Source: Dehalococcoidia bacterium (GTDB lineage Bacteria > Chloroflexota > Dehalococcoidia > Plut-88900). Taken from it: a stretch of DNA of 64,000 bases. Where the stretch lies: assembly GCA_965197585.1 (NCBI GenBank), contig OZ240215.1, positions 2,976,001 to 3,040,000 of the forward strand. The letters are read 5' to 3'. A program made the position numbers and the translations under genes. This document shows positions 6,276 to 62,202 of the stretch, piece after piece; within the stretch, counting starts at the first letter, position 1; each line of letters begins with the position of its first letter. Below the pieces are notes generated by a model, which saw nothing but the letters and a program-made list of their open reading frames with translations, searched no databases and had not been told where the DNA came from.

Positions 6276-6305
6276 GGGGCCCTCGCTGGACGTCATAGCG
6301 GGTGT

Positions 6306-7125
6306 TTTTGATTGACTCAATCAAAAGTTCGTGCCTGTATGATTGATCTGGGGAAGAAACCGGCGGTGTCGACCGGATTGAAGAGTGCGAAAGGGTGGGG
6401 GTGGGGATTCCGGCTCGGTGGAGAGGGTGTTTATTCAGTTGGGGTTTGGGGTTTTGGTTTGGTTTGGTTTGTTGGGAGGGACTGGCGATGGAAGGTCCGG
6501 GAGTGTTGGGCAGGGAGGCGGTTAGGCCTGTGCCGGTGCCTGTGGGCGTCGACTGCCTGCACAGGACAGCCCCTAGCTTCTGAGAGGATGTGGAGGGGAC
6601 CCGAGGGATTCTCGGTGTGGGGCGTCCCGACCACCAGAAGTGCTCGATCATGCGGAGGAATGGGAGCGTGACTCGAAGCCGCCGAGGGGTGCGCGTGCCT
6701 CTCCGAAGGAGTCGGCCTAGGGCACGATGGCCCCTAGCACAGCCCTGCAATAGGGCGGGATTTTTACATTTCGCTGGGATATGCGCATAGCGTTGACTCG
6801 AACGCGCCGGGTGAGTGATGCGTTGAATCGGGCTGGTCTCGCAAGCCTACATGCTGCTTAGAGTCGATGGACCTTCCATCGCGTGGTTGGTGGGGGAAGG
6901 GTGAGCCGGGGCCTTTGGTATGAGGAGGTGGCGGCTTTTGCTTGAGCCGAGGGGCGGCGTCTGGGCCGCCCTTTGGGATGGGCTTGGACGTTGAGTCCTC
7001 GGGGGCCGGGGATGTGGTTCCCCCTGGGTTGTGGTTCCTCCTTGGGTTTAGGGTGTGTGACGGGCCAGTCGAGGGTGAATATAGTACATGCGTTTTGATT
7101 TGGTCAAGGGGTTCGTGTCACATTT
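6306..7125 (-). repeat. Copy A of three-copy structured repeat (candidate large ncRNA or non-autonomous element)
   Basis: 103-nt core 6566-6668 matches 46778-46881 and 58442-58545; perfect 14-bp IR at 6485-6498/6869-6882; promoter at 7078-7107. Confidence 0.75.
7078..7121 (-). promoter_or_regulatory. Sigma70-type promoter with degenerate LexA-like box
   Basis: TTGACC-N18-TATATT; AAAC-N4-GTAC abuts the -10; GTGACAC lies 7 nt upstream of the -35. Confidence 0.6.
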
Positions 7126-7163
7126 GGCCAAGTGGGATCACCCTCACCCTAGCCCTCTCCCAT

Positions 7164-8453
7164 TGTATAGACCGGGGACATAGGTAACACATGTTCGGAG
7201 ACATGGGTTACACCATAAGGCATGGTAAATCTGATTCAGGAGGGTTTTCATGCCATGGAAGGTTGCAAGTGCCATGTCTCAACGCGAAGAGTTTATCGCC
7301 CTGGCGCAGTCCGAGGATGTGAATATGAGCGAGCTGTGTCTGCGCAGTGGGATCAGCCGCAAGACCGGCTACAAGTGGCTGAGACGATATCTCGAAGGCG
7401 GAGAGCAGAGTCTGGATGATCTCCCGAAGCGTCCCCGTCACTCCCCGAACCGCACGGGTGCCGAGATGGAGCAGCTCGTCGTAGACCTTCGTAGGGAGCA
7501 CCCTACCAAGGGAGGACACGTACTGGCCAGGATACTCAAGGATAGTGGTCACAACGGCGTGCCGTCCAAGAGCACGGTCACGGCCATCCTCAGGCGACAT
7601 CGGCTTATAGAGCCGGCGGACAGCCTCAAGCACAAGCCGTACAGGCGCTTCGAGCACCAACGGCCCAACGACCTTTGGCAAATGGACTTCAAGGGGCATA
7701 TCCCGGTAGGCAGTGGTGGACGGTGCCACCCACTGACGGTACTGGACGACCATTCGAGGTTCTCCCTGGGCGTGAGGGCTTGTGCAGACGAGAAGACTCA
7801 GACCGTCCATGACCATCTCACGTCCATCTTCCGCAGCTACGGCATGCCCAACACGATACTGGTAGACAATGGCTCCCCCTGGGGCAGCGACTTCTACCAC
7901 CCCTTCACCCCGCTCACCGTCTGGCTGGTTCAACTGGGAGTCAGGGTGGTACACAGCAGGCCATACCATCCCCAGACCCTCGGCAAGCTCGAGCGCTTCC
8001 ACAGGTCCCTCAAGACGGAACTGCTCCAGGGAAGTAAATACACCGACCTGTCCCACTGCCAGAGCAGCTTCGACAGGTGGAGAGACTTCTACAACCTCAA
8101 GCGGCCTCACCACGCCCTGGACCTCGATACCCCTGCCAGCAGATACGCCATCAGCCCTCGGCCTTTCCCGGAGGCCCTTCCAGCCGTCGAGTACGATGCC
8201 GATGACCATGTACGTTCCGTCGATGTCAACGGCCGAATATCCTTTCTGGGCAGATCACTTCCCATAGGTAAAGCCTTCAGAAACAGGCGGGTCGCTCTGA
8301 GGCCCACGGCCAACGATGGCACATGGAAGGTCTTTTTCTCTGTACAGCCCATCGCTACCATAGATATAAGTCGATAGAATGTGTTACCTATCTCCCCGAA
8401 CAACTGTTACCCATGTCCTCGGTCTAACTGTTACCCATGTCCCTGGTCGTACA
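7164..8453 (+). mobile_element. IS481-family insertion sequence
   Basis: Ends TGTATAGACCGGGGACATAGGTAACA...TGTTACCCATGTCCCTGGTCGTACA (TGT/ACA termini) with repeated subterminal GTTACCCATGT motifs. Confidence 0.92.
7250..8377 (+). CDS. IS481 DDE transposase
   Basis: MPW start, HTH ISRKTGYKWL, WQMDFKG, VLDDHSRF, DNGSPW, HPQTLGKLERFH. Confidence 0.95.
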   Translation: MPWKVASAMSQREEFIALAQSEDVNMSELCLRSGISRKTGYKWLRRYLEGGEQSLDDLPKRPRHSPNRTGAEMEQLVVDLRREHPTKGGHVLARILKDSGHNGVPSKSTVTAILRRHRLIEPADSLKHKPYRRFEHQRPNDLWQMDFKGHIPVGSGGRCHPLTVLDDHSRFSLGVRACADEKTQTVHDHLTSIFRSYGMPNTILVDNGSPWGSDFYHPFTPLTVWLVQLGVRVVHSRPYHPQTLGKLERFHRSLKTELLQGSKYTDLSHCQSSFDRWRDFYNLKRPHHALDLDTPASRYAISPRPFPEALPAVEYDADDHVRSVDVNGRISFLGRSLPIGKAFRNRRVALRPTANDGTWKVFFSVQPIATIDISR

Positions 8454-8620
8454 GTGAGGGTGATCCCACTCCTACATAGCCGTCATTCCCGTGAAAACGG
8501 GAATCCAGGGTTGGACATTCCGCTCGCCCTGAGCCGAGTCGAAGGGTCTCAAGAGCGGCAGTGGTGTGGGGCCGCCTTATCCCCTCTCCCTCGATGGGAG
8601 AGGGCTAGAGTGAGGGTGAT
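8454..8620. repeat. Cluster of REP-like palindromes
   Basis: CGTCATTCCCG..CGGGAATCCA (8481-8507), CCTGAGC..GTCGAAGG hairpin (8518-8558), CCCTCTCCC..GGGAGAGGG (8581-8604); the same types recur near 45.7-46.1 and 58.9-59.4 kb. Confidence 0.8.
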
Positions 8621-8630
8621 CTTCCCAAAT

Positions 8631-8673
8631 GTGACACGACCCGATTGACGGGCTGGTGCGCAGGTGCTAGATT
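8631..8673 (+). promoter_or_regulatory. tRNA promoter
   Basis: TTGACG-N17-TAGATT about 30 nt upstream of the tRNA; GTGACAC 7 nt before the -35. Confidence 0.6.
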
Positions 8674-8703
8674 ATTTTCCGCCCTGCCCCGACGGTAATT
8701 CTC

Positions 8704-18777: not shown

Positions 18778-21700
18778 CTATTCCTCCCCCAACCGACGCC
18801 AAGCGCGGTATGCCGCCTCGAACTGCCGCCTGCCTATGTCATGTTCACTGTAGTCCGCCTCTTCGAAACGGGCTATCAGTTCCTCCAGGGCTCTCTGGTC
18901 CAGGGTAAGTCCGCTCGCAACCACTACCGACTCCACCTCCCGAGGGGTGGCCTTACCGGATATTCCTGACACCTTCTGCCGCATTCCCGCCAGGAACAAG
19001 TTGTACCGCTTGACTATGTCATCCCTGAACTCGACCACCTCGAACCGACCACGGCCCTCCGATGGCAGATGTCCTTCGTCTCCTGCGAATTCTGCCTCTA
19101 CCTGATAGACTCCCAGGTCCTCCCCTCTCCAGACCGACTCACAGCGACCATCATCGTCCGTGATCAGCTCTTCCATTTCACCCGTGTCACCGATTAGTAC
19201 TCGAATTGACCGTCCTTGCAGCCCCCGCCCCACATCATCCAACAGTGCTAAAGTGACCTTCACTTCCTCCTCGACACTCCATATCTCCGGCAGGTCTTCC
19301 GCCGGTTTGACGAAGGAGACCTCCAGGCGAGTCGGCATCAACAGTCTCAGTTCGAATTCTTCAAATGTTTCCGCTGACGAGAACCGTTCTGTGCCCGCAA
19401 ACTCTGCCGTGACCCGGTACATTCCCGGCTCATCCCCCGCCCACGACGCCGAGCATTGGCCCTTCCGGTCCGTCACCAGCTCCATCTGCGCTTCCTCGTC
19501 ACCCCACACCACCCGGATCTCCGCCTCCGCTATCCCTCTCCCAGAGTCATCGGGCAACCTGCACCACACCTCTACTTCCTCCCCCACTTGCCACGCGTTC
19601 TTCGCATCCGGGGACGGGTCCAAAAAACCCATCTCCAGCCGCGCCGACTGCACAACCACTTCTACCGTGAGTGGTGGGCCCGAGGCAACGGCGGCAGCAC
19701 CCGAAGGCCGGGCGGATGCCAATACCGTGCGTCTACCAAAGCGTCGGCTTCCGAAAAAGCCGCCCCCGGCGCCTAGAACCAGCAGAACCGGCAGAAGCGC
19801 CCAAACCAGCCACCCCAGCCCCCCGCTCCTGACTTGCAGGCTCGCCAGATAGGAGACCGGGAGGTTTGTACCGTCTCCCTCGTAGCTGACTCTCAGCGGT
19901 ACGATTGTCAGTCCTTCTTCGTCCGGGACGTCAACCATCAACAGCGCCACGCCAAGCTCATCCGTCACTGCGGACCCATATCCCGCGTAGTGGACCGCAG
20001 CGCCCGGAATCCCGACTCCATGGTCGTCCAGAAGCCTCGCTTCCACCTGCACCAACCGTCCGGCCCTCGCTTCTTCCACGGGTGTCACCAGCAGGCTCGT
20101 CATCGCCATTACCCTCACCGAGACCTTTGTCTCAGCCTCAAGCTCCACCGCCGATACTTCCAACTCCATCTCCCCCAGCTCCGCATCTGACTGGACGGGC
20201 ATCCGCACCACGAAAGCCCCCACCGCATTCGTGCGCGCCAACTCTTGTCCGTTCACCTCAATTCTCGTGTCCGGCACAGTTTGGCCGCTTATCAGCGTCA
20301 CACCCCTAATCGTGACGCTATCGCCCCGGGCCACTGGTTCAGGTTCCTTTACCACGATCTCCGCCCTCCCCACCGTCACCGACAGAGTGGCCTGGATGAG
20401 TGCAAGCTCGTCCGTACCGGCAAATTTCACCTTGAGATCTGTTTCCGCTATCTCTTCGAACGTCGTTTCCCAAAGGAATGACCCCAGGAGACTGGTAACC
20501 ACTTCCACCGGCTCCCCCTGCCTCGCGCTCACCATCAGGGTATGACCTTCCAGTCCTTCACCATCCGTCCTGGCTAGCGTTCCCTCAAGTCGGTAAGGTG
20601 CACCCATCCGTACTACCCTGTCGCCGCTCAGGTCCAGGAGAACGAGCTCTACAACACTAAGCGTATATCCGCTCCTGCCCGGCTCCAGAAGGTCGTCTCC
20701 CGTGAAGGTCGCCTCAATTGCATACCTTCCCGGCTGGTCCGTTACACCCTTCATCTCGAACTCGCCCAGCTCATCGGTCAGTACTGAGGTCACGGCCTCC
20801 TCGGGCAGTGTGATGTCGACTTCCCGTTGAGACAACGGCGCCCCTCGGCTATCTGCCAGCGACCCCCTGATTATGTACTCCTCCCCAACCTGCACCTCTC
20901 TATCTCCACTCAATTTCAGGAAGACGGGCTCGGTCACGCTCAGGGTATATCCTGCCTTGCTCGGCTCAAGGACATCCTCACCAGAAAACGCCACTTCAAT
21001 GCCGTATCTACCTGGCCGCTCCGCTACGGCATTCCTTCGGAATTCGCCCTGTTCGTCGGTCAGGGCCGATGCCTTGACCTCTCCAGGCAAGGTGATCTCG
21101 ATCTGCTTCAATGGCAAGGGGGCTCCGTTGGAGTCCATCAACGTGCCATTGATCACGTATTCGTCCCCGACCTGTACCTCTCTGTCACCACTTAGTTCAA
21201 GGAACACCGGTTCGAATACGCTGAGTGTATATCCGCTCTTTCTGGGCTCAAGAATGTCATCCCCCGCAAAAGAGGCCTGGATGCCATAGACCCCTCGCCG
21301 CTCCGTCGACCCTCTTACTGTGAACTCACCCCGCTCCCGGGTCTGGACCGAGGCCACCTCCCCATCCGGCAGGGTAACTTCGATCGACTGCCTGGCTAAC
21401 ACCCCTCCGCGAATGTTCCTCAACGTGCCGGTTATGACGAAATCCTCCCCGACACGCACGTTGTCCACAGCGTCGATAGTCAGCACACTCGGCATCGTGA
21501 CCATCACATCTAAACTGGCCTCGTTCCCCAGCATGTACCCTTCCTGCTCAAACGTCACCGCCACCGACCGCTGCCCCGTCCGACCAAACGTCCTTGTGAA
21601 ACTGAAGGCGCCTCGGTCATCCGTCGTCACTTGGAACGGGGCTAGTCCCTGTATGTTCACGCGAATCGTACGACTGCCCACCGGGTCTCCCGCTTCCTCC

Positions 21701-24700
21701 GTCAATCTCCCCCGGAAAGTCCCCTCCGCGTCTATCGAAATCTCCGATGGCCCGCTAAACTCCATCTCCGTCCCGGCATACACTCCTATTTCCGGGTCGC
21801 TCCAGGATCCCCGGTAGTCATCGTTCCCTATAGCATGGGCAATGAGTTGGTAGCTTCCCTCTTCGAAGCTATCCGGCACCAGGACCTCTATCTCGAACCG
21901 GCCGTTTTCCGTCTCCGTAGTTCCCAGCCTCCAGCCACCTTGTTCCTTCGTTTCGTTAATGAATATCTCCACCTCCATCCCATCCACCGGAGCGCCGGAT
22001 AACGTATTCACTTTCCCCCCTATATCGAACGGTAGCCCTTTCCGCGTCTCCCTGGGCCATTGGTCGATCTCGATTACAGTCCCGCGCTTTATCGGATCAC
22101 CCTGTGAATGGACTAGATCGCCTCTGGCTTGGATCACTCGGGAAGGTGCACCCCCTGATCCCGTCGGTTCGAAGGTCACCCATCCAATCCCCTCAAACGC
22201 CACTTCCGCCCACTGGTGCCCCTGGTCCGAATACACTGTTTGGCCGCCGGGGGCCTTCACTATCATCCAGCCCGACACAACCCGCGCAGGTATCCCCACC
22301 GACCTTGCCATTACCACGAATGCACTGCTGTACACCCCACATGTCCCCTCCCGATGATCGAACAGGAACCAGTCAACCGGGTCCCGGCCCTCAGGGGGTG
22401 CGTCGTCAGACGAATCGGCGAACGCATAAGGGTAAGCGGTGCTCAGATATCGCTCCAGCGCCTTAGCCTTCAGGTAGGGACTGCTGTATCCACTTGTAAC
22501 CTCCTTCGCCTTCAGGCGGACTCTGTCCGGGACGCTGGAGGGTAATTGGGTGTAGGTTGGGTCCGACGATACGGAAGCCTGCCTGAGCTGTGCCTCGGAG
22601 TAGACGGGAATCTTCGCTGTCCACGTGTACTCGGACACTGATTCTGCGGAGTAATGCGTTGCATTGTAGGCCCATAAGAAACTCCCGGTATCGATGCTAT
22701 TGACTTGGAGGGAGGTTGCCAGTGGACCTTTGGGGAACTTCTCCAGCGAGCCAATGGGAGTCATGCGAATGACGTCCGTATACGTTGCAAAGGGTGTTGT
22801 CTGAAAGCCGGCCAGCAATGAGATATCAAGCCGTTCGGGAGGAAGTCGAGAAAACTCGCTGTCCGGATTTTCCATTTCCCTCAACACTGCCTCCGGCACG
22901 TTCTCATTTGGAGTGACCCAGAACCCGACCGGGTGCAATTGATGCCATCGGCCATTCTGGTACAAGTCTCCCACTGCAGTCCGCAGACGGTCTGTATGAC
23001 CCGCGCCGTCTACTTGGAATATAGGATTATGGGCAAGCCCAGCAGATTGAGCCGTAGTGGTGCCGGGTACCCAATATCCCAGATTCTCATACACAACCAG
23101 GGAAGCGCCGTTCTCCAGGGTAGTGATCGACGCCCCTCTCTTTTCCAGAATCTCCAGTGCCGCTTCTTCATATCCCGGCCTCGTGTCACCCAGGATCCGT
23201 TCCAGGTTGAACAGTCCTACACCACTGTCTTCGTCCAGGATATCCAGGTTCTCATCTATCTTCTCAGTAATCGCCTGTATGTCCGACTCCGGTACTGCCG
23301 ATTCATCGTCTCCTGCTGTGCCCTCGCCACTTCCTTCGACCTCTTCCCCATCCCCCGCACCGACTTCATCAACATAGAAGCCTGGCGTCCGGGACGGCGG
23401 CCCCGACGCAGTAGGCTCGAAAGAAACCCACCCGATTTCATCCAACGCCACCTCCGCCCACTGGTGCGCCTGGTCCAGGTACACCGTCTGCGTTTCGCCG
23501 GTCTGCCCAATCGCCCAGCCCGACACCACCCGGGCAGGTATCCCCACCGACCTTGCCAAGACCACGAAGGCACTGCTGAACTGGCCGCATGTGCCTTCCC
23601 TGCTTTCAAATAGGAACCAGTCCACCGGGTCTCGGCCTGCCGGAGGCTCGGCAACTCCCGATTCTGCAAACGCATACGCGTAAGTCTCTCTCAGGTACTG
23701 CTCAATAGCCTTTGCCTGGGCGTACGTCCCGGTATAGCCCTCCGTGATCTCCCTCGCCAGTTCGCCTACCCGTCCCGGCACGGTTTCCGGCAACTGCGTG
23801 TATACAGCGTCCTCATACGCCCCCGCCGCTCTCAACACCTCGTCCTCGAATTCCACTGCACGCGCCGACCACACGACCCGCTCAGCCTCGTTTTCGATGC
23901 GGACCGTGCTGCTATACGGGAAGTACACCCCCGGCTCTAATACGAACCGCATGTCCAGCGACGCGGGTATTACACCCGCCGCTATAACTGCCCCATCATT
24001 TGCTGGCGAAACTATGACTGACAAATTGACAGTCTGGCCAGTCAGATAGCGAGAGGTGGAAGATCCGGGCGGCCCAGGTCGGCTGGTCCCGCTCTGCGCA
24101 TTCAGCACCACTTCCTGCAGCTGTTCTATCCCTTCGTATGGCGCTTCCACCGGGTCCGATTGCGTCCACCGCCCGTTTTCGTACACATCCCCTGTTGCCG
24201 TGCGCAGATAGTTGAGCTTCTCAGCGCCACTCACCTCGAACACCGGCAAGTGCGGTGGCTTTCCCGCCTGCATCGTGGTTGTGCCCGCACCTAAAGCCAA
24301 CACCTCATCATCCACTAACCCCACAAGTCCCCCATTCTCTAGCCGGGTGATATCGGCCCCAAGCCTCTCACGTGCTGCCTCCGCCGCCGCCCTCACCTCC
24401 GGGCTGGGGTCTGAAAGAGCCTCCATAAGTGGCCCTATTGCCTTCGAGTCTCCCAGACTCGCCAAGCCGCCAATTGACAACTCTCTAACGAGTGCGGATT
24501 CATCCTCCTTCAGCGCCTTTATTAGCGCGTCGACCGCTTTCTCGCCCTTCAATGTTGCCAGGGCTTTTGCAGCCTCGGCCCGCACCTCTTCCGCCTCATC
24601 CTCATGCAGTGCGGATATCAGGGGATCTACAGCGTTCCGGTATCCTTCATCTCCCAGGGTCTCGGCGGCTTTGGCCCGGACCTCGGCCGCCTCGTCGCTG

Positions 24701-26943
24701 CCCAACGCATCAATTAGCGGATCGCTCACGTCCGTTAATGTTTCGGGTGCGATCTCGGAATACTCCAGCAGTTCATCAATCGTGCCCAAGCGCTCGTCGA
24801 GATCGGGATTGGAGAGCAGCTTATCGCCCAGCCGGTCCAGTTCGTCCACCCATGCCTCCATCACCGTGGCCCGGAAGGGCGCTCCGTTAGATGGTGTCGG
24901 TTCGAACCTTCTCCAGCCTATGCCCTCGAAAGCCACCTCTGCCCATTGGTGGGCCTGGTCCGCGTAAACCGTTTGCTGCTCCACTCCTTCGCTTATCACC
25001 CACCCCGATACCACGCGCGCCGGTATACCCACCGACCTTGCCAACACCACGAACGCACTGCTGAACTGGCCGCATGTGCCTTTCCTCGTCTCAAAGAGGA
25101 ACCAGTCCACTGCGTCTCGGCCCTCGGGCAGGGCTTCGTCGTCCTCTGTAGCGAACGCGTATTCGTAGTTATCTCGCAGGTGCCACGCCAAGGCCCTCGC
25201 CTTCTCATACACCGACTCGTGTTCTTCAGTGATCTCTTCGGCCAGCAGACGCACTCTCTCAGGTACGTTTTCCGGCAGCCCAAGTGCCGTTGAGTCCGAA
25301 TACGCCTGCGCCGCCAGCATCTCTTCTTCCGAGAACCGATGCACACCGGACATCCACCCATACTCGTCGACTTCTATGTCCGTCGAGAAAGTCCCGCTGA
25401 AAGGCCTGTAAAGCCCGTCCGTGTCAAAGAATTCCGCACCTATAGTGGTAGGCAGCGCTCCCGCCGGCACTTTACGCCCCGGTTCATGGGCCGAAACGGT
25501 TATTCGCTGCCGGCTCGTTTCTTCTGCCGGGCTCTCCGGCCAGAGCAGCAGGGATGCTCCTGCGTCTTCCCACGGCAGGATGTCTACGTTTCCGTCCTCT
25601 ATTAGCACCGCATATACAAGTTGGCGGGTCGGTGTTCGTGCCGCGTAAGCCAGTTCCACAGGGTCGGTCCTGGTCCATCCTTGCCCCGTGTACTCGTCTC
25701 CTGCGTCTGTGCGCAGATATCCTGTTGCGCTTGCGCCGCTCACCTCGAATACAGGCCTGTCGTCCGGTGTTGACACCCGGCTTGCGCTCGTCCCTGGCGC
25801 CCAGAAGACTTGGTCGCCTATATAGACCAATGCCGCGCCGCTCTCCAGCGGTGTCATCGAGGCGCCTATGTCACTCAGGATCCACTCCGCTGCGTTCTTC
25901 ACCCCAATATCAGGACCTCCCAACGCCTCAACCAACGCCGTCTCCGCCGCAGCACTCACTTCCGGGTCATCCCCTCCCAATGCCTCAACCAGAGCCGACT
26001 CCGCCGCCGTCCTAACGTCCTCGTTACTGTCCCCCAACGCCTCAACCAGCGCCGCGACTACTGCCGGGTCAGCCATGCCCGCGAGCTCGGACACAGCCTC
26101 GACCTTCTCATCCGGGCTCCCGTGTATCAGCAAGTTGAAGTAGTCCACTTCACTCGATGCTTGGTCTTGCTGGGTCGTCGGGCCTGGCTGGCCCGACAGG
26201 CCCGGCACCCCTTCTCCCTCCGTGGTCCCGGTTGCCGGCCGCCAGTAGACGTTCACGGCGCCGGTGTAATCGGGTGTCGTCTCCACCACCGAGTGGTGTT
26301 TGAAGAGGTTGACCCCGTATATGGCGTCGGAGCCGAACATGCCGAATACCAGGGCTGCTGTCAGCCACGCTAGAAGAGGTATGGGCAAAAGCTTGGGCTT
26401 TGCCACCTCAACCAGGCCAACGGTCACCACGAATGCGGCCAGCAGCGTTAACCCCAACGGCGCCACACCCTCGGTCTTGACCGGGTGTTCTCCGTAGTCC
26501 ACCCCGCCGAAGGGCAACCCCTCACCGAATACCGAGGAAGCGACTAGGTAAACACCCGTCCCCAGCAACCCCACCGCGACTACTTCACCCGGCAGCAAGG
26601 CCGTCCACCCACGTCCCTTGCTATCTTTAAATCGACGCTTAAGCAGAAGGAGTGCCGCGAGTCCCAGCAGGATGCTCATGGCCGGCGCCACCACGGCAAT
26701 CAGACCTGCGCCGCTCGGTATTTCTGACGCGGCTGAGTCAGCCGCGTCCTTGGTAGTTAGCAGGTCCCTGGGTCCGTCGCTGGTGAGCCCGCCAAAAAGC
26801 TCGAAGAGAAAAAACAGTCCACCAAGAGCCACCGCCAAAACCAGGAGCAGACCGAGATGGGACCTAACCTCCCTGAACAACCCCATCATCTGCCCATTAA
26901 ACGCACCTTTGTTCAGATCACATCCTTGACACTTACCTGTCAT
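18778..26943 (-). CDS. Giant transglutaminase-like protein: 3 TGase domains, HEAT repeats, Ig-like repeats, TM, DUF4129-like end
   Basis: Three GTCG.[FY]SSAFVV.ARSVGIPARVVSGW...HQWAEV...FEPT blocks; L..AL.D....VR..A repeats; about 95-aa beta repeats; TPRE...FEEADYS C-terminus; true start may be 26889. Confidence 0.9.
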   Translation of the reverse strand: MTGKCQGCDLNKGAFNGQMMGLFREVRSHLGLLLVLAVALGGLFFLFELFGGLTSDGPRDLLTTKDAADSAASEIPSGAGLIAVVAPAMSILLGLAALLLLKRRFKDSKGRGWTALLPGEVVAVGLLGTGVYLVASSVFGEGLPFGGVDYGEHPVKTEGVAPLGLTLLAAFVVTVGLVEVAKPKLLPIPLLAWLTAALVFGMFGSDAIYGVNLFKHHSVVETTPDYTGAVNVYWRPATGTTEGEGVPGLSGQPGPTTQQDQASSEVDYFNLLIHGSPDEKVEAVSELAGMADPAVVAALVEALGDSNEDVRTAAESALVEALGGDDPEVSAAAETALVEALGGPDIGVKNAAEWILSDIGASMTPLESGAALVYIGDQVFWAPGTSASRVSTPDDRPVFEVSGASATGYLRTDAGDEYTGQGWTRTDPVELAYAARTPTRQLVYAVLIEDGNVDILPWEDAGASLLLWPESPAEETSRQRITVSAHEPGRKVPAGALPTTIGAEFFDTDGLYRPFSGTFSTDIEVDEYGWMSGVHRFSEEEMLAAQAYSDSTALGLPENVPERVRLLAEEITEEHESVYEKARALAWHLRDNYEYAFATEDDEALPEGRDAVDWFLFETRKGTCGQFSSAFVVLARSVGIPARVVSGWVISEGVEQQTVYADQAHQWAEVAFEGIGWRRFEPTPSNGAPFRATVMEAWVDELDRLGDKLLSNPDLDERLGTIDELLEYSEIAPETLTDVSDPLIDALGSDEAAEVRAKAAETLGDEGYRNAVDPLISALHEDEAEEVRAEAAKALATLKGEKAVDALIKALKEDESALVRELSIGGLASLGDSKAIGPLMEALSDPSPEVRAAAEAARERLGADITRLENGGLVGLVDDEVLALGAGTTTMQAGKPPHLPVFEVSGAEKLNYLRTATGDVYENGRWTQSDPVEAPYEGIEQLQEVVLNAQSGTSRPGPPGSSTSRYLTGQTVNLSVIVSPANDGAVIAAGVIPASLDMRFVLEPGVYFPYSSTVRIENEAERVVWSARAVEFEDEVLRAAGAYEDAVYTQLPETVPGRVGELAREITEGYTGTYAQAKAIEQYLRETYAYAFAESGVAEPPAGRDPVDWFLFESREGTCGQFSSAFVVLARSVGIPARVVSGWAIGQTGETQTVYLDQAHQWAEVALDEIGWVSFEPTASGPPSRTPGFYVDEVGAGDGEEVEGSGEGTAGDDESAVPESDIQAITEKIDENLDILDEDSGVGLFNLERILGDTRPGYEEAALEILEKRGASITTLENGASLVVYENLGYWVPGTTTAQSAGLAHNPIFQVDGAGHTDRLRTAVGDLYQNGRWHQLHPVGFWVTPNENVPEAVLREMENPDSEFSRLPPERLDISLLAGFQTTPFATYTDVIRMTPIGSLEKFPKGPLATSLQVNSIDTGSFLWAYNATHYSAESVSEYTWTAKIPVYSEAQLRQASVSSDPTYTQLPSSVPDRVRLKAKEVTSGYSSPYLKAKALERYLSTAYPYAFADSSDDAPPEGRDPVDWFLFDHREGTCGVYSSAFVVMARSVGIPARVVSGWMIVKAPGGQTVYSDQGHQWAEVAFEGIGWVTFEPTGSGGAPSRVIQARGDLVHSQGDPIKRGTVIEIDQWPRETRKGLPFDIGGKVNTLSGAPVDGMEVEIFINETKEQGGWRLGTTETENGRFEIEVLVPDSFEEGSYQLIAHAIGNDDYRGSWSDPEIGVYAGTEMEFSGPSEISIDAEGTFRGRLTEEAGDPVGSRTIRVNIQGLAPFQVTTDDRGAFSFTRTFGRTGQRSVAVTFEQEGYMLGNEASLDVMVTMPSVLTIDAVDNVRVGEDFVITGTLRNIRGGVLARQSIEVTLPDGEVASVQTRERGEFTVRGSTERRGVYGIQASFAGDDILEPRKSGYTLSVFEPVFLELSGDREVQVGDEYVINGTLMDSNGAPLPLKQIEITLPGEVKASALTDEQGEFRRNAVAERPGRYGIEVAFSGEDVLEPSKAGYTLSVTEPVFLKLSGDREVQVGEEYIIRGSLADSRGAPLSQREVDITLPEEAVTSVLTDELGEFEMKGVTDQPGRYAIEATFTGDDLLEPGRSGYTLSVVELVLLDLSGDRVVRMGAPYRLEGTLARTDGEGLEGHTLMVSARQGEPVEVVTSLLGSFLWETTFEEIAETDLKVKFAGTDELALIQATLSVTVGRAEIVVKEPEPVARGDSVTIRGVTLISGQTVPDTRIEVNGQELARTNAVGAFVVRMPVQSDAELGEMELEVSAVELEAETKVSVRVMAMTSLLVTPVEEARAGRLVQVEARLLDDHGVGIPGAAVHYAGYGSAVTDELGVALLMVDVPDEEGLTIVPLRVSYEGDGTNLPVSYLASLQVRSGGLGWLVWALLPVLLVLGAGGGFFGSRRFGRRTVLASARPSGAAAVASGPPLTVEVVVQSARLEMGFLDPSPDAKNAWQVGEEVEVWCRLPDDSGRGIAEAEIRVVWGDEEAQMELVTDRKGQCSASWAGDEPGMYRVTAEFAGTERFSSAETFEEFELRLLMPTRLEVSFVKPAEDLPEIWSVEEEVKVTLALLDDVGRGLQGRSIRVLIGDTGEMEELITDDDGRCESVWRGEDLGVYQVEAEFAGDEGHLPSEGRGRFEVVEFRDDIVKRYNLFLAGMRQKVSGISGKATPREVESVVVASGLTLDQRALEELIARFEEADYSEHDIGRRQFEAAYRAWRRLGEE

Positions 26944-43978: not shown

Positions 43979-45469
43979 ATGCAGACCCTAGCCCAACTGC
44001 TCGACGCCGGGGCCCCGGACAAAGCCGCCGTAGTAGTGCCTGGTGGTCCGACCCTAACCTACCGGCAGCTCCGAGACCAGGTCGAAGAGTTGGCCTCTAC
44101 CCTATCTGCCGCTGGTCTCTCTAGGGGACAGGCGGCGTCCATAGCCTTGGGCAACGACATCCGGTTCGTAGCCACTTTCCTTGCCGTGGCCCGGCTGGGA
44201 GCGGTCGCCGCCCCCCTCAACCCCAACTACACCGAAGACGAGTATCGTTTCTACATGGAGGACGCGGGCGCTTCACTGGCCATACTCCCGCCGGAGGAGC
44301 ACCCAGCGCGGGGAGCGGCCCAAGAGCTCGGACTCCTCTGCATCGAGGCCCATGACTCGGGTGACGGGGCAGTCCGCCTGACTCGGGAAGGCGCAACGCT
44401 AGAGGGCGGTGGCCAGCCAGAAGGCCCCACCCCTGACGACATAGCGCTCTTTCTCCACACCAGCGGAACTACCAGCCGCCCCAAGGGCGTCCCCCTCAGC
44501 CATGCGAACCTCGCGTCATCCCTCAAAAACATCGTAGGCACCTACGGCCTCTCGGAAGAGGACAGGGCCCTGATGATTATGCCCCTGTTCCATGTTCATG
44601 GTCTCATCGGCGTCCTTTTCTCCACCTTCGCCAGCGGAGGAACGAACATCGTCCCAAGCCGTTTCAGTGCCAGCAACTTCTGGCCCGTGGCCCTGGAGCA
44701 GGCCGCCACCTGGTACTCCGGCGTCCCGACCATGCACCAGATCCTCCTCTCCCGCGCCGACAGCGACAACGCACCTCGCGGCACCTTCCGCTTTATCCGC
44801 TCCTGCAGCGCCGCACTGGCTCCCGCCGTCCTCGAAGGACTGGAGGCCCGCTTCGACTCCCCCGTCCTCGAGGCATACGGTATGACCGAGGCATCTCACC
44901 AGATGTCCTCCAACCCCCTGCCTCCGGCTCAGCGCTTTGCAGGGACAGTGGGCCGGGGCACCGGCGTCCGCATCGCCATCATGGACGAGGCTGGGGCCAT
45001 GCTCGCAGACGGGGATCGAGGCGAAGTCGTGATCATGGGAGCCAACGTCATGAAGGGCTACCGCAACAACCCCGAGGCCAACGCCTCCTCCTTTGCCGAC
45101 GGCTGGTTCAGGACAGGCGACCAGGGCTTCCTCGACGACCTCGGATATCTCAACATTACGGGCCGTTTGAAGGAGCTGATCAACCGTGGCGGCGAGAAGA
45201 TCGCTCCCCTGGAAGTCGACGCAGTCCTTGCCCAGCATCCCGCCGTGCAGGACGCCATATGCTTCGGCGTACCTGACGAAAAATTCGGCGAAGAAGTCCA
45301 CGCCGCTGTCGTGCTAAACGGAGATGTCACGCAGGAGGACATCCAGGCCTTCTGCCAAAAGCACCTCATCGATTTTAAGGTCCCCAAGACCGTACACATA
45401 GTCGACACCCTTCCGCGCACCGCCACCGGCAAGATACAGCGCCGAAACGTCGCCGCACTGTTTAGCTAA
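43979..45469 (+). CDS. Acyl-CoA synthetase, oxalate-CoA ligase-like
   Basis: HTSGTTSRPKGV, RSCSAAL, YGMTEASHQM and RTGD; the subfamily call is inferred from these motifs. Confidence 0.85.
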   Translation: MQTLAQLLDAGAPDKAAVVVPGGPTLTYRQLRDQVEELASTLSAAGLSRGQAASIALGNDIRFVATFLAVARLGAVAAPLNPNYTEDEYRFYMEDAGASLAILPPEEHPARGAAQELGLLCIEAHDSGDGAVRLTREGATLEGGGQPEGPTPDDIALFLHTSGTTSRPKGVPLSHANLASSLKNIVGTYGLSEEDRALMIMPLFHVHGLIGVLFSTFASGGTNIVPSRFSASNFWPVALEQAATWYSGVPTMHQILLSRADSDNAPRGTFRFIRSCSAALAPAVLEGLEARFDSPVLEAYGMTEASHQMSSNPLPPAQRFAGTVGRGTGVRIAIMDEAGAMLADGDRGEVVIMGANVMKGYRNNPEANASSFADGWFRTGDQGFLDDLGYLNITGRLKELINRGGEKIAPLEVDAVLAQHPAVQDAICFGVPDEKFGEEVHAAVVLNGDVTQEDIQAFCQKHLIDFKVPKTVHIVDTLPRTATGKIQRRNVAALFS

Positions 45470-45470
45470 C

Positions 45471-45671
45471 ATGCCTAAATCAACGCCCCCAATCCCCCGC
45501 CCATGGTCCAAAGTCCTCCTCTGGGCCGCAGCAATCACGCTGGCCATAGTCCTGGCGACCGCCATCATCAACCCTCTCTTCGATCGCGTCGTCAACTGGG
45601 GCTTGCTCTTCATACTCGCGACGCTGGTCTTCATAGTCCTCGTCACGGCCTTCCGCCGGCGCTGGTTCTAA
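45471..45671 (+). CDS. Small 2-TM membrane protein
   Basis: Directly follows the ligase; two hydrophobic helices and a basic tail. Confidence 0.6.
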   Translation: MPKSTPPIPRPWSKVLLWAAAITLAIVLATAIINPLFDRVVNWGLLFILATLVFIVLVTAFRRRWF

Positions 45672-45850
45672 CCACCCATCCCCAGGTGGGGGGCCGCTCA
45701 CCCTGAGCAAGCTGGAAGTGCGCCGTGCTGTAAGTCCGCCTTTGGCGGAGAGCATCGAAGGGTCGACCGGGCGCAGGCCCGCGCCCCTCCAATCCATCAC
45801 ACCCATCCACCCCCACCCCCGGAGGGGAACCTGTCCGCCCAAGGCGGATC

Positions 45851-47370
45851 ATCCCGAGGCTCCGCGAGGGATCTGGGGAGAGGGGTCCAGTCCCCTCTCC
45901 CTCCCTTTACTCCGTCATTCCTGCGGAGGCAGGTCGCAGATGCGCCAAGGCGCGAACCCATCCCTCCTGAAAGCACACCCCCGCCGAGCCGAAATCCATC
46001 CCCAGGGGTGGGGAATTCCGTTCGCCCTGAGCGAAGTCGAAGGGTCTCAAGAACGGAATGGGGTGGTGTCCCCTACCCCAAAAGTGACACGAACCCCTTG
46101 ACTCAACATGAACATGCGTACTATATTACCTCTCAGGCCCGACTCCCCACGTCGGCCCTAATCAAGGAAAGGTGGAACATCCGCCCCCTGGCGGAACAAA
46201 AGGAGTCCCATGAGTCGCACAAGCCTTCATATGCCCCATCGTTACCGAGCGGTATGTCACCGCCCGGCCACAGGCACGCGCCTCCTCCCCAATCCCTTTC
46301 CTCCCACCATCCTACGCATCAACACCCACTACAAGCGCTGCCCCAGGGCCGAACGCCTCCGCCTCCGCAGCGATCAATCATCGTCCCGCCTCCTGCATGG
46401 AAGGTCCCCGGACAAATCAAGGCACGCCCTGCTGCAGGGCAGCCGCCTCCGCATCAGCGCCCCCGTCGAGGGGCATACTTACGTCGCCGACTTAGTCCTT
46501 GCCGGCGAATCCCAACAGTCGGATGAGCGCCGACTCAAAACCAACGCACCATTTAAGGATTCCACCGTCGTCACAACCGGAGAACTTCCGACTACGAACG
46601 CCGGTCTCGGGTCCCCGCTCCCATCCCTTAGGGTGGTCGAGCACTTCTGGTGGTCGAGACCGCCCCACACCGAGAATTTCTCGGCTCTCCTCCACATCCT
46701 CTCAGAAGTCAGGGGCAAGGATTCCACCGTCGTCACAACCGGACTACTTCCGACTACGAACGCCGGTCTCGGGTCCCCGCTCCCATCCCTTAGGGTGGTC
46801 GAGCACTTCTGGTGGTCGGGACTGCCCCACACCGAGAATTTCTCGGGTCTCGTTCACATCCCCTCAGAAGTTCGGGGCTGTAGCAAAGCCGGCTTCGATG
46901 TGGAACATCCGCTGTCGCGGACAACACCCATCGGTACAGGCGTCGCCGCCTTCCTGCGCAATCGTCCGGGACCTTCCATCCCCTTCCCCTCCCGTTTTCT
47001 CCGTCTTTCCTGCGGAGGCAGGTCGCAGATGCGCCAAGGCGTGAATCCATTCCCGAAAGGGCAGGGGCCCCGCTCCTCGGGGCGTACCCTCCCCTCCCTC
47101 CCCCTTGTCCATTCCCCCAGTAGGGACGACCGGCCGGTCGCCCTGGGTGTGGGCGCCCCGAATAGGGCGTCCACACCTCTCCCCCTCCCTTTTACCATTC
47201 CGAGGCTCCGCGAGGAATCTCGGACTTGCCCGCTCACCCTTCCCCCCCACCTCACCCCACCCTCGAAAGGGGCCGCCTACTAGCCCATACCCTCAAAATG
47301 CCCCATGCCCATCCTGGGGAAACACCGCAGAACAATCAAAGATCACGCCTGAGTCCGCACATCAATCAAA
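45851..47370 (+). repeat. Copy B of three-copy structured repeat
   Basis: Colinear with copy C from the REP flank to the CAATCAAA pair; IR at 46397-46413/46964-46979; internal 162-nt tandem duplication. Confidence 0.85.
46084..46127 (+). promoter_or_regulatory. Sigma70-type promoter with LexA-like box
   Basis: TTGACT(46098)-N18-TATATT(46122); GAAC-ATGC-GTAC at 46110-46121. Confidence 0.7.
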
Positions 47371-47505
47371 CCTCCCCCTTCATGCCTGGCCCGTCGGCCC
47401 AATCAGGGCATCAATCTGCAGCGGCTGTTTCCGTTGTCCCTCCTGTCACACTGGGTTAGAATGCCGGAGCGTGATTCTACACAGTCCCCTGCCCGGAGGT
47501 AGCCA

Positions 47506-48375
47506 TTGCCCTACGACACCCTGCTCTACGAAAAGACCGGCCAAATCGTCAAGGTGACCCTTAACAGACCCGACGTCCTGAACGCCATCAGCGACGAGAT
47601 GGTAAAGGAGATCCGGCTGGCCATTGATGAGGCCGACGCCGACCCCGGAGTCCGCGTCGTCATCCTCACGGGCGCCGGACGCTCCTTCTCCGCCGGCTAT
47701 GACATCAAGCCCCGTGAAGACGGGCGTCCTGCAGCCGACCCGCAGGGCTTTGAAATTGGCGACTATATCAAGCTCTGGTGGGACCGGGACGCCTACGACA
47801 CCGATCAATTCACCCATTTCTGGAAGCTGGGCGTCCCAGTCATCGCTTCCGTCAGGGGCTACTGCTTTGGGGGCGGGTTCTGGTACAGCATGGCCTGCGA
47901 CATCACCATTGCCGCCGACAACGCCGTCTTCGGCCAGCCCGAGGTCCGGCACATTTCCAATACGTCATTCATGCTAGCTGCCCTCTCGAACTGGAAGCAG
48001 GCCCACCGCTGGGCCCTCACCGGTGACCACATGGGTGCCGAGGAGGCTCTCCGCATCGGTGTAGTCACACAGGTAGTCCCCGAGGCTGACCTGGACGCCG
48101 TAACCTGGGCCCTCGCCGAGCGCATAGCCCTCGTCCCCGAGGCCTCGGTCCGAGTCAACAAGGCAGTCACCTGGATGGGCATGGAGGCGATGGGACTCGG
48201 CGCTGCGATGCAGGTCAACGCTGCCCTCTCCAGCGTGGCCCACAGCTCCCACGGTGGCCATCGAGAGGCTCTCTGGGACGCACAGTCCACCGGAGGCCTC
48301 AAAGGCTTCCTGGAGGCCCGGGACGGCCCCTTCCTCCCCGAGCCCTTCGGCCCCAAGTCAAGGAAGAAGAAATGA
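47506..48375 (+). CDS. Enoyl-CoA hydratase/isomerase family protein
   Basis: LNRPDVLNAI, FSAGYDI, GYCFGGG and FGQPEV motifs. Confidence 0.92.
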   Translation: MPYDTLLYEKTGQIVKVTLNRPDVLNAISDEMVKEIRLAIDEADADPGVRVVILTGAGRSFSAGYDIKPREDGRPAADPQGFEIGDYIKLWWDRDAYDTDQFTHFWKLGVPVIASVRGYCFGGGFWYSMACDITIAADNAVFGQPEVRHISNTSFMLAALSNWKQAHRWALTGDHMGAEEALRIGVVTQVVPEADLDAVTWALAERIALVPEASVRVNKAVTWMGMEAMGLGAAMQVNAALSSVAHSSHGGHREALWDAQSTGGLKGFLEARDGPFLPEPFGPKSRKKK

Positions 48376-57885: not shown

Positions 57886-58086
57886 CTACCTGGGACCGGC
57901 CGTCTGGCAGTCGAGAGTTGGGCCTTCGATCGGTCACGGAACCGTGGGCAAAATAAGTACAAGTACAAAACCTCGACCAAAATAATTGTACCACAATGCC
58001 CTGTTTTTAGCTACTGTTTATGCCTGTCAAATATGATGGGGTCACGGGGGCCGGCTGCTCCTTTGTTGGATGTTGGGAGAGGGAGT

Positions 58087-59370
58087 TTTGATTGATGTGC
58101 GGGCGCAGTCGTGGTCTTTGATTGTTTTCGGGGAAATTTGGTTTTTTCCGGGGTGGAGACGCCGGGGATGGGGAGGGGGTTCCTTTCGTGAGTGGGGTGA
58201 GGGGAGAGGGGGGAAGGGTGAGCGGGCAAGTCCGAGATTCCTCGCGGAGCCTCGGAATGGTAAAAGGGAGGGGGAGGGGTGTGGACGCCCCAATCGGGGC
58301 GCCCACACCCTGGGCGACTGGCCGGTCGTCCCCAGTGGGGAAGTGGGCAAGGGGGAGGGAGGTGATGGAAGGTCCCGGACGGTTGCGCAAGAAGGCGTCT
58401 ACGCCTGTGCCGATGCATGTGAGATCGGCGACGGCTCTGCGACAGCCCCTAACTTCTGAGGGGATGTGGACGAGACCCGAGAAATTCTCGGTGTGGGGCA
58501 GTCCCGTCCACCAGAAGTGCTCGACCACCCTAAGGGATGGGAGCGGGGACCCGTGACCGCCGTTCGTAGTCGGGTGTTCTCCGGTTGTGACGACGGTGGA
58601 ATCCCTAAATGGTGCGTTTGTTTTAAGTCGGAGGTTGTCCGACTGTTCGGACTCGCCAGCAAGGTCTAGGCCGGGGGAGTCCGGAGGGGGCGCTATGGCC
58701 CAAGGAGGAGACATGACGCTGTGCTCCAGGGCGTCGCCTGAGGAGGCGAGACGGATGCGCCGGGTGAGTGTAGCGCGCATTTGGCAGTGGCCCTTGGAAA
58801 GGGGGTGCCGTGATTTGTCCGGGGACCTTCCATGCAGGGGGCGGGACGGTGATTGATCGCTGCGAAGGCGTAGGCGTTGGGCCTTTGGGCAGCGCTTGTA
58901 GTGGGAGTTAAGATGGGGAGGACTGGGGAGGAGACCCCGCCTATTCCGCTCTTGAGACCCTTCGACTCCGCTCAGGGCGAGCGGAATGCCCCACCCCAGG
59001 GAATGGTCGAGGCGGGAATGGGGGCTGGGAAGGAGGCGCGTGCCAATGGCCGGGCGGTGGCATACCGCTCGGGTGTGACGGGGCCTATGGAGGCCGGTGC
59101 GACTCATGGGACTCCTTTAGTTCCGCTCCGCCAAAGGCGGACTTTCAGCTGGGCGGATGTTCCACCTTTCCTTGATTAGGGCCGACGCGGGGTGTCGGGC
59201 CTGGCAGGCAATATAGCACGAATGTTCATGTCGAGTCAAGGGGGTGGTGTCACTTTTGGGGAATCACCCTCACCCCCTCGGGGGGACTCGGGGCAGGCTC
59301 TAGCCCTCTCCCGTCAGAGGGAGAGGGGACTGGACCCCTCTCCCCAGATCCCTCGCGGAGCCTCGGGATG
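58087..59370 (-). repeat. Copy C of three-copy structured repeat
   Basis: IR at 58365-58380/58817-58833; core 58442-58545; TTTGATTG pair at 58087/58117; colinear with copy B. Confidence 0.85.
59210..59253 (-). promoter_or_regulatory. Sigma70-type promoter with LexA-like box
   Basis: TTGACT-N18-TATATT; GAAC-ATTC-GTGC abuts the -10; GTGACAC 7 nt upstream of the -35. Confidence 0.65.
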
Positions 59371-59481
59371 ACAGGGTCAAGGGGTTGGCGTCACTCGCCG
59401 AGGCGAGTCTTCGACCCCATCTCCCCGGGAATAAATGGAGGGGCGCCTAATGGACGGGCTCAGACCACTGACTCGACCTGC

Positions 59482-61787: not shown

Positions 61788-62202
61788 GTGCTGCTCCTCC
61801 TTCTACTAGGCCCTTCGCTGCGATTCTCCATACTCAGCTTACTGGATCCAACACCAACACAATAACATAGGTGACAAACATAGGACTTTCACTCACGAAT
61901 GCGGGCAAATTTTCTATCAAGATCACAGATCCATCCGGGGAGCGGGCTGAACCGGGTGATCGATGGGCCACTCGGCCCGTACATTCGAAGTCCGCGCATG
62001 TGCCCTTCCTGCCGTCGCTTCGACAAGTGGCCGATATGGAAGGTCCTTATCTGGACCAACCTCCTCTGCAGCGCATTGGTCCGCTGATGGAAGAAGTTCT
62101 GGGGCGGCTGGTACTCGCGTGCGGTGAGATAGGCTTCAGGTGGGGGCTGATGTCACATGTCGACTACCTAGGAGCCACCACTTTGTGAATTGCAGCGCAA
62201 TG

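Follow-up and report, generated by a model that had tools for sequence, protein, structure and literature searches.

The precursors of ribosomal RNA (rRNA) carry long-range flanking stalks that serve as RNase III substrates, the attC sites of integrons are folded single-strand recombination sites with conserved outer cores, an extrahelical base and a centre of tens of nucleotides, and HEARO-type RNAs are tied to mobile elements. The present analysis concerns an inverted repeat with likenesses to all three, found as arm pairs A, B and C in a 64,000-nt stretch (hereafter the window) from a Dehalococcoidia bacterium of the Chloroflexota (GenBank assembly GCA_965197585.1, contig OZ240215.1, positions 2,976,001 to 3,040,000). 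The original prediction, made from the letters of the window, took the repeat for a conserved stem around a domain of variable length, namely a P1-like helix closing an RNA domain or a signal for processing or excision. The inverted repeat is real, and it bounds the swappable middle piece of a many-copy, promoter-driven, protein-less element derived from a gene for a protein resembling the terminase large subunit (TerL). The stem is probably a selected long-range helix, formed in the transcript.

Several described systems come close to this element, each in part. Internally deleted, non-autonomous derivatives of mobile elements or prophages, of the type of the miniature inverted-repeat transposable elements (MITEs), are likewise dispersed, present in many copies and without an open reading frame (ORF), and descend by internal deletion from a coding parent; the likeness extends to one filled site set against three empty ones, with a short repeat at both junctions. 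They differ in that the inverted repeat is here internal, the parent is terminase-like and not a known transposase, and the element keeps the promoter of its parent in every copy and exchanges its interior. The rRNA-precursor stalks share with it a helix of ~14–28 bp, arms hundreds of nucleotides apart, a strong promoter upstream and, as a weak hint, RNA contigs that lie only between the arms; the element, however, encloses a decaying gene fragment and not a conserved RNA. With attC sites it has in common the conserved outer cores, the complementary inner stem, the extrahelical base, the variable centre, the exchange of cassettes and a bias of strand or orientation, whereas its centre measures 300–780 nt as against tens of nucleotides, its arms lie within a gene and a transcribed unit, its copies stand singly, and no integron integrase is linked to it (none was searched for). 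The OLE, GOLLD, ROOL and HEARO/omega RNAs are also long, promoter-driven, ORF-free and closed by a helix, but the element has no Rfam match, an interior that is unconserved across its subfamilies and an evident origin in a protein gene. The pac sites of SPP1 type, with two TerS-binding subsites, recall it through a terS/terL parent beside an SPP1-type portal gene and through two conserved boxes a few hundred base pairs apart; compared by description, a location in terL, inverted boxes and chromosomal dispersal are, to our knowledge, not features of pac sites.

Anatomy and distribution of the element family

Direct reading of the sequence bore out the coordinates claimed for all three arm pairs (Table 1). 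As the original prediction states, A and B/C have different stem flanks, and each copy is still self-complementary: A is extended outward by GCG/CGC, and B and C inward by CCGGAC/GUCCGG past a bulged C. The closing stem of B appears in both the minimum-free-energy and the centroid fold of either strand, and that of A in both folds of the sense strand. The core ATGGAAGGTCC occurs seven times in the window, counting both strands, against 0.02 expected, and none of 100 dinucleotide shuffles reached seven. Six of these occurrences make up the three arm pairs; the remaining one, at 62036–62046, is an exact 11-mer core with no partner arm nearby.

The genome searched consists of one contig of 3.43 Mb. 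It holds 35 arm pairs, spaced 259–778 nt apart with at most two mismatches in total (34 without one left arm that was counted twice), and the core arm pairs fall into at least five interior types. By using the looser core GCGATGGAAG ... CTTCCATCGC, 50 promoter-linked elements were obtained; seven further genuine copies have a diverged upstream box, each with a TTGAC-N17-19-TAnnnT promoter 212–409 nt upstream. The family has about 57 copies per genome and makes up roughly 1–1.5% of the chromosome by our own estimate from copy number and length. A loose genome-wide scan gave 133 arm pairs, mostly due to chance, and served only to nominate extra copies, each of which was then inspected. No stem-bounded unit was found outside the promoter-to-tail frame, the promoter-less candidates of the loose scan resembling chance pairs.

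The unit runs from a sigma-70 promoter through a 5' region, the left arm, the variable interior and the right arm to a C/A-rich tail, and the promoter is built from a conserved box joined to the −35, a spacer of 17–19 nt and a TAnnnT −10. In eight aligned copies of one type, homology extends from the promoter box to ~100 nt beyond the right arm. The box sits 143–420 nt (typically 226–265 nt) 5' of the left arm and homology stops ~60–110 nt after the right arm, so that the arms are internal to the repeated unit. All copies can be oriented with one C-rich strand, and in that sense A and C lie on the minus strand and B on the plus strand. The copies are dispersed singly, without arrays.

At the DNA level, the family is present in all eight other genomes of the genus, and it was not detected, at DNA-level sensitivity only, in three further genera of the same taxonomic family or in 29 further families within the class. 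Among 4227 Rfam models, the sole match at gathering score was a tRNA elsewhere in the window. A published description of the family was not found in the portions of the literature that were accessible to the search.

Origin in a terS/terL-like operon

Two arm pairs fall within intact ORFs of 430–463 aa, each of which stands behind the family promoter and an ORF of 132–134 aa. The frames of B and C align to the 463-aa TerL-like protein as decayed copies of residues ~195–372, and the arms correspond to TerL-like codons ~230–234 (N/D-D-G-R-F) and ~361–366 (G-S/P/T-S-I-V). A translated search of the genome itself returned two full-length TerL-like genes and 21 partial matches (residues ~195–377). 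When a TerL profile was run against the 50 elements, 11 matched at E<1e-4, with the arms at profile positions ~231 and ~367; four gave weak matches only (E 1.7–8.5) and 35 none, and in these the arms are intact. In an unscored comparison of the commonest type, the 5' region appears to resemble the start of the small ORF, and the last ~25 nt of this type appear to resemble the stretch where the terL-like gene ends. A tblastx search followed up nine interiors that lack TerL homology, and nearly all its matches were to other element copies; for two of the nine, a single weak match fell outside the known elements (E 3e-4 and 9e-4), and no gene of origin emerged for the nine. Judging from these alignments, the element arose by internal deletion from a terS/terL-like operon belonging to a phage-like cluster that is conserved in Dehalococcoidia.

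The parent gene has the marks of a terminase large subunit, a protein with a Walker A/B ATPase at the N terminus and an RNase H-like nuclease at the C terminus that is encoded beside a small subunit and a portal gene. The TerL-like protein matches the PHROG terminase large subunit at E 7e-6, PF17289 was found in 5 of 13 homologues, and the ATPase and acidic motifs (GGKN and DES) are invariant among homologues, which number more than 3600 and are mostly unnamed Dehalococcoidia proteins. Outside the genus, the gene lies between a small ORF and an SPP1-type portal gene, and TerL-like copy b of this genome has a portal gene 1.5 kb downstream. Weighing against the terminase assignment, Pfam gave no match for this genome's own TerL-like copy, a sequence search of the PDB with the TerL profile gave none either, and the AlphaFold model of the protein is poor (mean pLDDT 53).

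The cluster of terS-like, terL-like and SPP1-type portal genes is found at 55–70% protein identity across Dehalococcoidia (G000:C1 ~2866–2875 kb, loci L091 and L097), which suggests a vertically kept phage-like or gene-transfer-agent-like module.

Non-coding state

Per-site differences at codon positions 1, 2 and 3 are 0.205, 0.165 and 0.39 among the genes, and 0.166, 0.176 and 0.132 among nine B/C-type elements; compared with the gene, all nine have 4-nt deletions in common. The elements are non-coding, and their interiors carry no codon constraint. It is barely conceivable that B and C are protein genes after all (open frames 46210–47283, plus strand, and 58007–59107, minus strand). Such a view could appeal to the length of these frames, 357 and 366 aa, to the TerL-like stretches within them and to the open frames kept in many element copies. 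It is contradicted by the missing third-position excess and by the shared indels of 4 nt, by the alteration in the B/C frames of conserved acidic-residue motifs of the nuclease domain, by the continuation of these frames through unrelated repeat modules and by the lack of a Pfam match, while a C-rich, T-poor strand would be short of stop codons by composition.

The helix in genes and elements

The helix is not confined to the non-coding copies. In 20 genes of the genus, codons ~228–240 pair with codons ~356–367 over 14–28 bp, with one to four G·U pairs, and over 23–28 bp in the 13 genes that pair most strongly; it encloses ~400 nt in intact genes and 317–778 nt in the non-coding derivatives. 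For 13 of the 20, none of ~400 windows pairs better with the left-arm window than the right-arm window does. The other seven are weaker, two having five to seven better windows and five showing little beyond the core. Sixty orthologues outside the genus have no special complementarity (median rank 25%, 1 of 60 in the top 2%), so that the helix is peculiar to this genus, as are the presence of the gene in multiple copies and the ORF-less family.

Across 107 distinct copies from several genomes of the genus, stem positions −3 to +11 are mostly paired and both-sided changes occur at three positions: position 8 is G-C in 68 copies and A-U in 17, position 9 is U-A in 67 and C-G in 9, and position 10 is C-G in 69 and G-C in 18. 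The inner-stem types differ yet remain complementary (GGUCC/GGACC, GACGCCC/GGGCGUC and AUGCC types). Relative to the gene, the commonest elements show an exchange of A-U for G-C at −3/+3 and three more outer pairs, the helix reaching outward to CAGGCG/CGCCUG. An RNAalifold analysis of seven copies of one subfamily left the closing stem invariant and found both-sided changes in 2 of 91 pairs, a divergence too small for judging the interior fold.

Transcription

The promoter stands upstream in every copy. That of B is a strong match, agreeing with the consensus at 10 of 12 positions, and no terminator-like site was found on the plus strand between it and position 47700, a stretch that takes in both arms. 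Contigs of two metatranscriptome runs cover only 46356–46903, with a summed depth of up to 37–47 against 0–4 in the neighbouring gene, and neither run has contig cover over 46178–46298 in the 5' region or past 46904. Since parts may go unseen in contigs and behind the likeness filter, these gaps do not count as evidence of processing. Upstream of the promoter, a module repeated even more often has a DNA depth of 1835 and an RNA-run depth of ~1; RNA-run depth is therefore not proportional to DNA copy depth, and the RNA signal of the element is not simply DNA carry-over. The contig cover is a weak hint of transcription.

A LexA-box-like palindrome was noticed in the promoter spacers of B (GAACATGCGTAC, 46110–46121) and C (59227–59216, minus strand). 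Among the 50 element promoters, the box has one mismatch in 18, two in 31 and three in one, at a fixed offset, and 0.5% of shuffles reach one mismatch or fewer. The upstream region of lexA itself contains GAAC-N4-GTTC, and beyond the genus the corresponding promoters in the phage-like cluster carry perfect LexA-like boxes. The units may be, or may formerly have been, under SOS control.

Insertion and exchange of the interior

The comparison of a filled with an empty site was made at the locus of A, which is filled in another species. There, one species carries the whole unit, from box to tail, downstream of a conserved gene, and three species have ~100 nt in its place; a C-run/A-run is repeated on both sides of this promoter-to-tail insert, at this one site. 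B gave no clean empty site, because it is shared with relatives or rearranged in them, and two extra loci gave none either. Alleles that lack the enclosed segment, for which the original prediction had proposed a search, were not found in nine genomes. No allele with directly joined arms was found in this genome, and in the nine genomes four short-spaced places were seen, in two genomes: two of them are shortened elements of 167–169 nt, and the other two, with the arms 58 and 88 nt apart, were not inspected.

The interior varies independently of its surroundings. At one orthologous locus, the interior type differs between close species, with the 5' region, tail and flank kept; the interior of the most distant pair at this locus is 85.8% identical against 76% in the flanking gene. 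At a second orthologous locus, the interior, promoter spacer and leader type differ between close species and the tail and flank are kept. The intact genes L082 and L083 are 90.6% identical before the arms, 69.6% between them and 95.3% after them, with both breakpoints at the arm cores. From such comparisons, interiors of the element are seen to be exchanged between copies, sometimes exactly at the arms. The enclosed segment behaves as a unit in these swaps and in the L082/L083 mosaic, which bears out part of the original prediction.

Larger rearrangements were also observed around the three copies. B and C with their surroundings (45721–47379 and 58078–59371) form an inverted pair of 1.3–1.6 kb, 10.7 kb apart, and a close relative has the B/C interval in the other arrangement, with the flanks expected from an inversion between two such copies. 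The A locus (6280–8700) is a synteny break: in five relatives, the sequence after the gene that ends near 6279 corresponds to one located, in this genome, 37 kb ahead of the window. An insertion sequence with a transposase of rve/IS481 type (ORF 7250–8377) occupies 7164–8425 and adjoins the promoter of A; its copies are 98–99% identical in this genome and a close relative, and another species has at least 14 copies at 82%.

Interpretation of the stem

The most economical reading of the stem is a helix that closes a domain of the promoter-driven transcript, and this reading is preferred here, tentatively, over a DNA-level site and over a functionless relic kept by gene conversion. The arms would pair in the transcript made from the retained promoter, forming a stalk that closes off the interior, and we infer that this stalk could signal in cis to a protein, or to an RNase specific for double strands, in processing, stability or recognition. 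The short, near-identical stretches of the arms would in addition provide the junctions at which copies recombine. The derivatives themselves show an enclosed part that decays, duplicates and is swapped between copies, and they retain the promoter, the 10-nt arm cores and the base pairing. The helix proposed in the original prediction holds up in that the arms are kept complementary around a variable interior in the 107 copies, with changes on both sides at three positions; it does not hold up as a free-standing domain, the arms and the recognisable interior coming from a TerL-like gene whose intact copies share the helix, nor as one for which RNA is favoured over single-stranded DNA.

A number of observations weigh against a helix in the transcript. 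The independent compensatory events are few, because the changes stem from few lineages, that is, from few stem types. There is no bias to G·U over A·C, the anchored stem having 46 cells of G·U type and 39 of A·C type among the 107 copies, which gives RNA no preference over single-stranded DNA. In 35 of 51 element rows and in 10 of the 20 genes the antisense duplex has the higher stability, which leaves no energetic advantage for the sense strand; this strand test is uninformative, because base composition by itself favours pairing of the G-rich strand. Sequence conservation of the arm cores goes beyond what pairing asks, which fits a protein that recognises DNA as well as one that recognises RNA, and several copies carry single uncompensated mismatches (U·U, C·A, A·C). 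The breakpoints of swaps are not always at the arms, other gene pairs breaking elsewhere. The metatranscriptome contigs give no strand, RNA ends or level, and no Rfam family matches, a relaxed scan of 45400–47600 giving nothing better than E 0.2. The sense strand of the element is the locally C-rich strand in 28 of the 37 copies with a clear local skew (p 0.0026) and in 37 of 50 overall, with no such bias in control long ORFs (397 of 808). The C-rich strand is presumed to be the lagging strand, and the bias would be opposite to that usual for highly expressed RNA genes and is reminiscent of movers of single-stranded DNA.

Part of this evidence would suit arms that are a signal in DNA, double- or single-stranded, which either the TerS-like/TerL-like pair or some recombination enzyme recognises, a reading that we consider rather unlikely though the most serious of the rivals. 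Copying or exchange of the unit would require the site in cis. It could be a pac-like start of packaging with two distant subsites, or else a recombination site folded from a single strand, in which the outer cores are conserved, the inner stem covaries, one base is extrahelical and the centre varies. The parent unit encodes no proteins other than ones that act on DNA, and such a signal could accommodate the conserved sequence of the arm cores, the lack of preference for G·U over A·C, the orientation to the locally C-rich strand (28/37), the cassette breakpoints at the arm cores of L082/L083 with interiors swapped at orthologous loci, the insertion of the whole unit in one species with the C-run/A-run on both sides, and the association of copies with inversions and rearrangements. 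However, a pure DNA site has no obvious need of a promoter, which is kept at a fixed distance in every genuine copy; arms 300–780 nt apart cannot extrude a cruciform and would pair only in long single-stranded stretches; no recombinase or integrase is linked to the family, none having been searched for; and we know of no pac site inside terL with an inverted layout of two arms. A bolder extension, in which the TerS-like/TerL-like pair is the engine of a new genome-resident system in the genus and the arms are its pac-like or hairpin-like recognition site, appears improbable. It is possible in two versions: a terminase-derived mobile element that copies itself and its ORF-less derivatives to new sites, or a domesticated phage-like particle or nuclease that acts at ~57 chromosomal sites, exchanging the cassettes between the arms. 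The helix might, on the other hand, do nothing at all: a chance 11-bp complement in the gene would have been inherited, and the arms kept uniform by conversion between copies and between arms (concerted evolution). Frequent recombination between copies and the mosaic genes would suit such a course, as would single-copy mismatches that are not purged and the absence of a strand bias in pairing, and by our own estimate a chance complement of 11 bp in a 1.4-kb gene is not very unlikely (~0.2). This account seems unlikely all the same, given a helix of 23–28 bp in 13 of the 20 genes of the genus, there the best partner gene-wide (14–28 bp over all 20), its outward extension in non-coding derivatives with the exchange of A-U for G-C, and an inner stem that varies by type and stays complementary; the arms, moreover, outlast the most conserved protein motif of the interior, being intact in the 35 of 50 elements without a TerL match and the four with a weak one.

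Two further readings take the arms for the borders of a mobile or invertible piece of DNA, and both were rejected. Were they the terminal inverted repeats of a MITE, perhaps one lying within a larger repeat, the arms would belong to a short, ORF-free, multi-copy sequence with a conserved inverted repeat of 11–17 bp, a description that does apply here. The alternative, which the original prediction had itself raised, is nevertheless highly improbable, since the arms are internal to both the repeated and the inserted unit: homology runs 143–420 nt upstream and ~60–110 nt downstream of them, and the filled site in one species contains the whole unit from promoter to tail. The arms also lie inside an intact, conserved protein gene, and the sole coding relatives are terS/terL-like units, with no transposase partner; the sequence just outside the arms is conserved element without a target-site duplication, the C-run/A-run standing only at the ends of the unit and at one site; and neither a stem-bounded unit outside the frame nor an allele with joined arms was found. 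An invertible segment (an inverton or an intragenic inversion switch) would likewise have inverted repeats of 11–25 bp around 300–780 bp, in some cases within a gene, yet this is scarcely credible, both orientations of the enclosed segment not having been seen. The interior is in gene orientation wherever this could be assessed, in 11 of 50 elements by profile and in 20 genes, and in two DNA runs the joints, among those listed, include skips and go-backs with no change of strand.

If the transcript helix is accepted, a piece of a phage DNA-packaging gene would have turned into a multi-copy, promoter-bearing, non-coding element whose sole strictly kept feature is a long-range stem that is also present in the living gene. 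The family would then offer a testable case of a structured non-coding element, or of a folded DNA site, born from coding sequence, and would show how such an element reshapes the genome of a symbiont, its copies being located at points of inversion and rearrangement and its interiors traded between loci and with intact genes. It also carries a caution, in that a closing stem around a variable domain need not imply an ancient RNA fold.

Feature coordinates and further observations

Table 1. Positions of the arm pairs, promoters and derived stretches of copies A, B and C in the window. Left and right arms are named in the sense of the transcript.
Feature	Position	Strand	Description
Stem A	6485–6498 / 6869–6882		GCGATGGAAGGTCC and its exact complement; 14 bp, perfect; span 398
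Stem B	46397–46413 / 46964–46979		17 nt against 16 nt; 16 bp, one extra C in left arm; span 583
Stem C	58365–58380 / 58817–58833		Helix as in B, on opposite strand; span 469
A left arm	6869–6882	−	
A right arm	6485–6498	−	
B left arm	46397–46413	+	ATGGAAGGTCC core, bulged C, CGGAC; TerL-like codons ~230–236
B right arm	46964–46979	+	TerL-like codons ~361–366
C left arm	58817–58833	−	Contains the bulged C
C right arm	58365–58380	−	
A promoter	7078–7121	−	Box 7121–7103; −35 TTGACC 7107–7102; −10 TATATT 7083–7078
B promoter	46084–46127	+	Box GTGACACGAACCCCTTGAC 46084–46102; −35 TTGACT 46098–46103; −10 TATATT 46122–46127
C promoter	59210–59253	−	Box 59253–59235; −35 TTGACT 59239–59234; −10 TATATT 59215–59210
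A recognisable TerL-like interior	6466–6669	−	Residues ~305–372; sole such part of the A interior
B TerL-derived stretch	46309–47001	+	Residues ~195–337, then 285–372; no codon constraint
C TerL-derived stretch	58361–58675	−	Residues ~262–366
B tandem duplication, 162 nt	46555–46878	+	Copies 46555–46716 and 46717–46878, 94% identical
B 3' region	46980–47379 (end approximate)	+	Common to B, C and one other copy; has short genome-dispersed repeat modules

B owes its greater length to its tandem duplication, and an intact TerL-like homologue from another assembly (P0047) carries an internal duplication of 42 aa in the region that is duplicated in B. Repeat modules of 50–110 nt, some of them hairpin-forming, lie near the elements (45849–45903 and 59317–59371; 45886–45964 and 46975–47053; 8508–8558 and 46006–46056). 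The short modules are dispersed in the genome, where the 1.7-kb B region has 94 matches. Elsewhere in the window, 18778–26943 on the minus strand is an open frame of 2721 aa with three 147-nt repeats of 77–78% identity.

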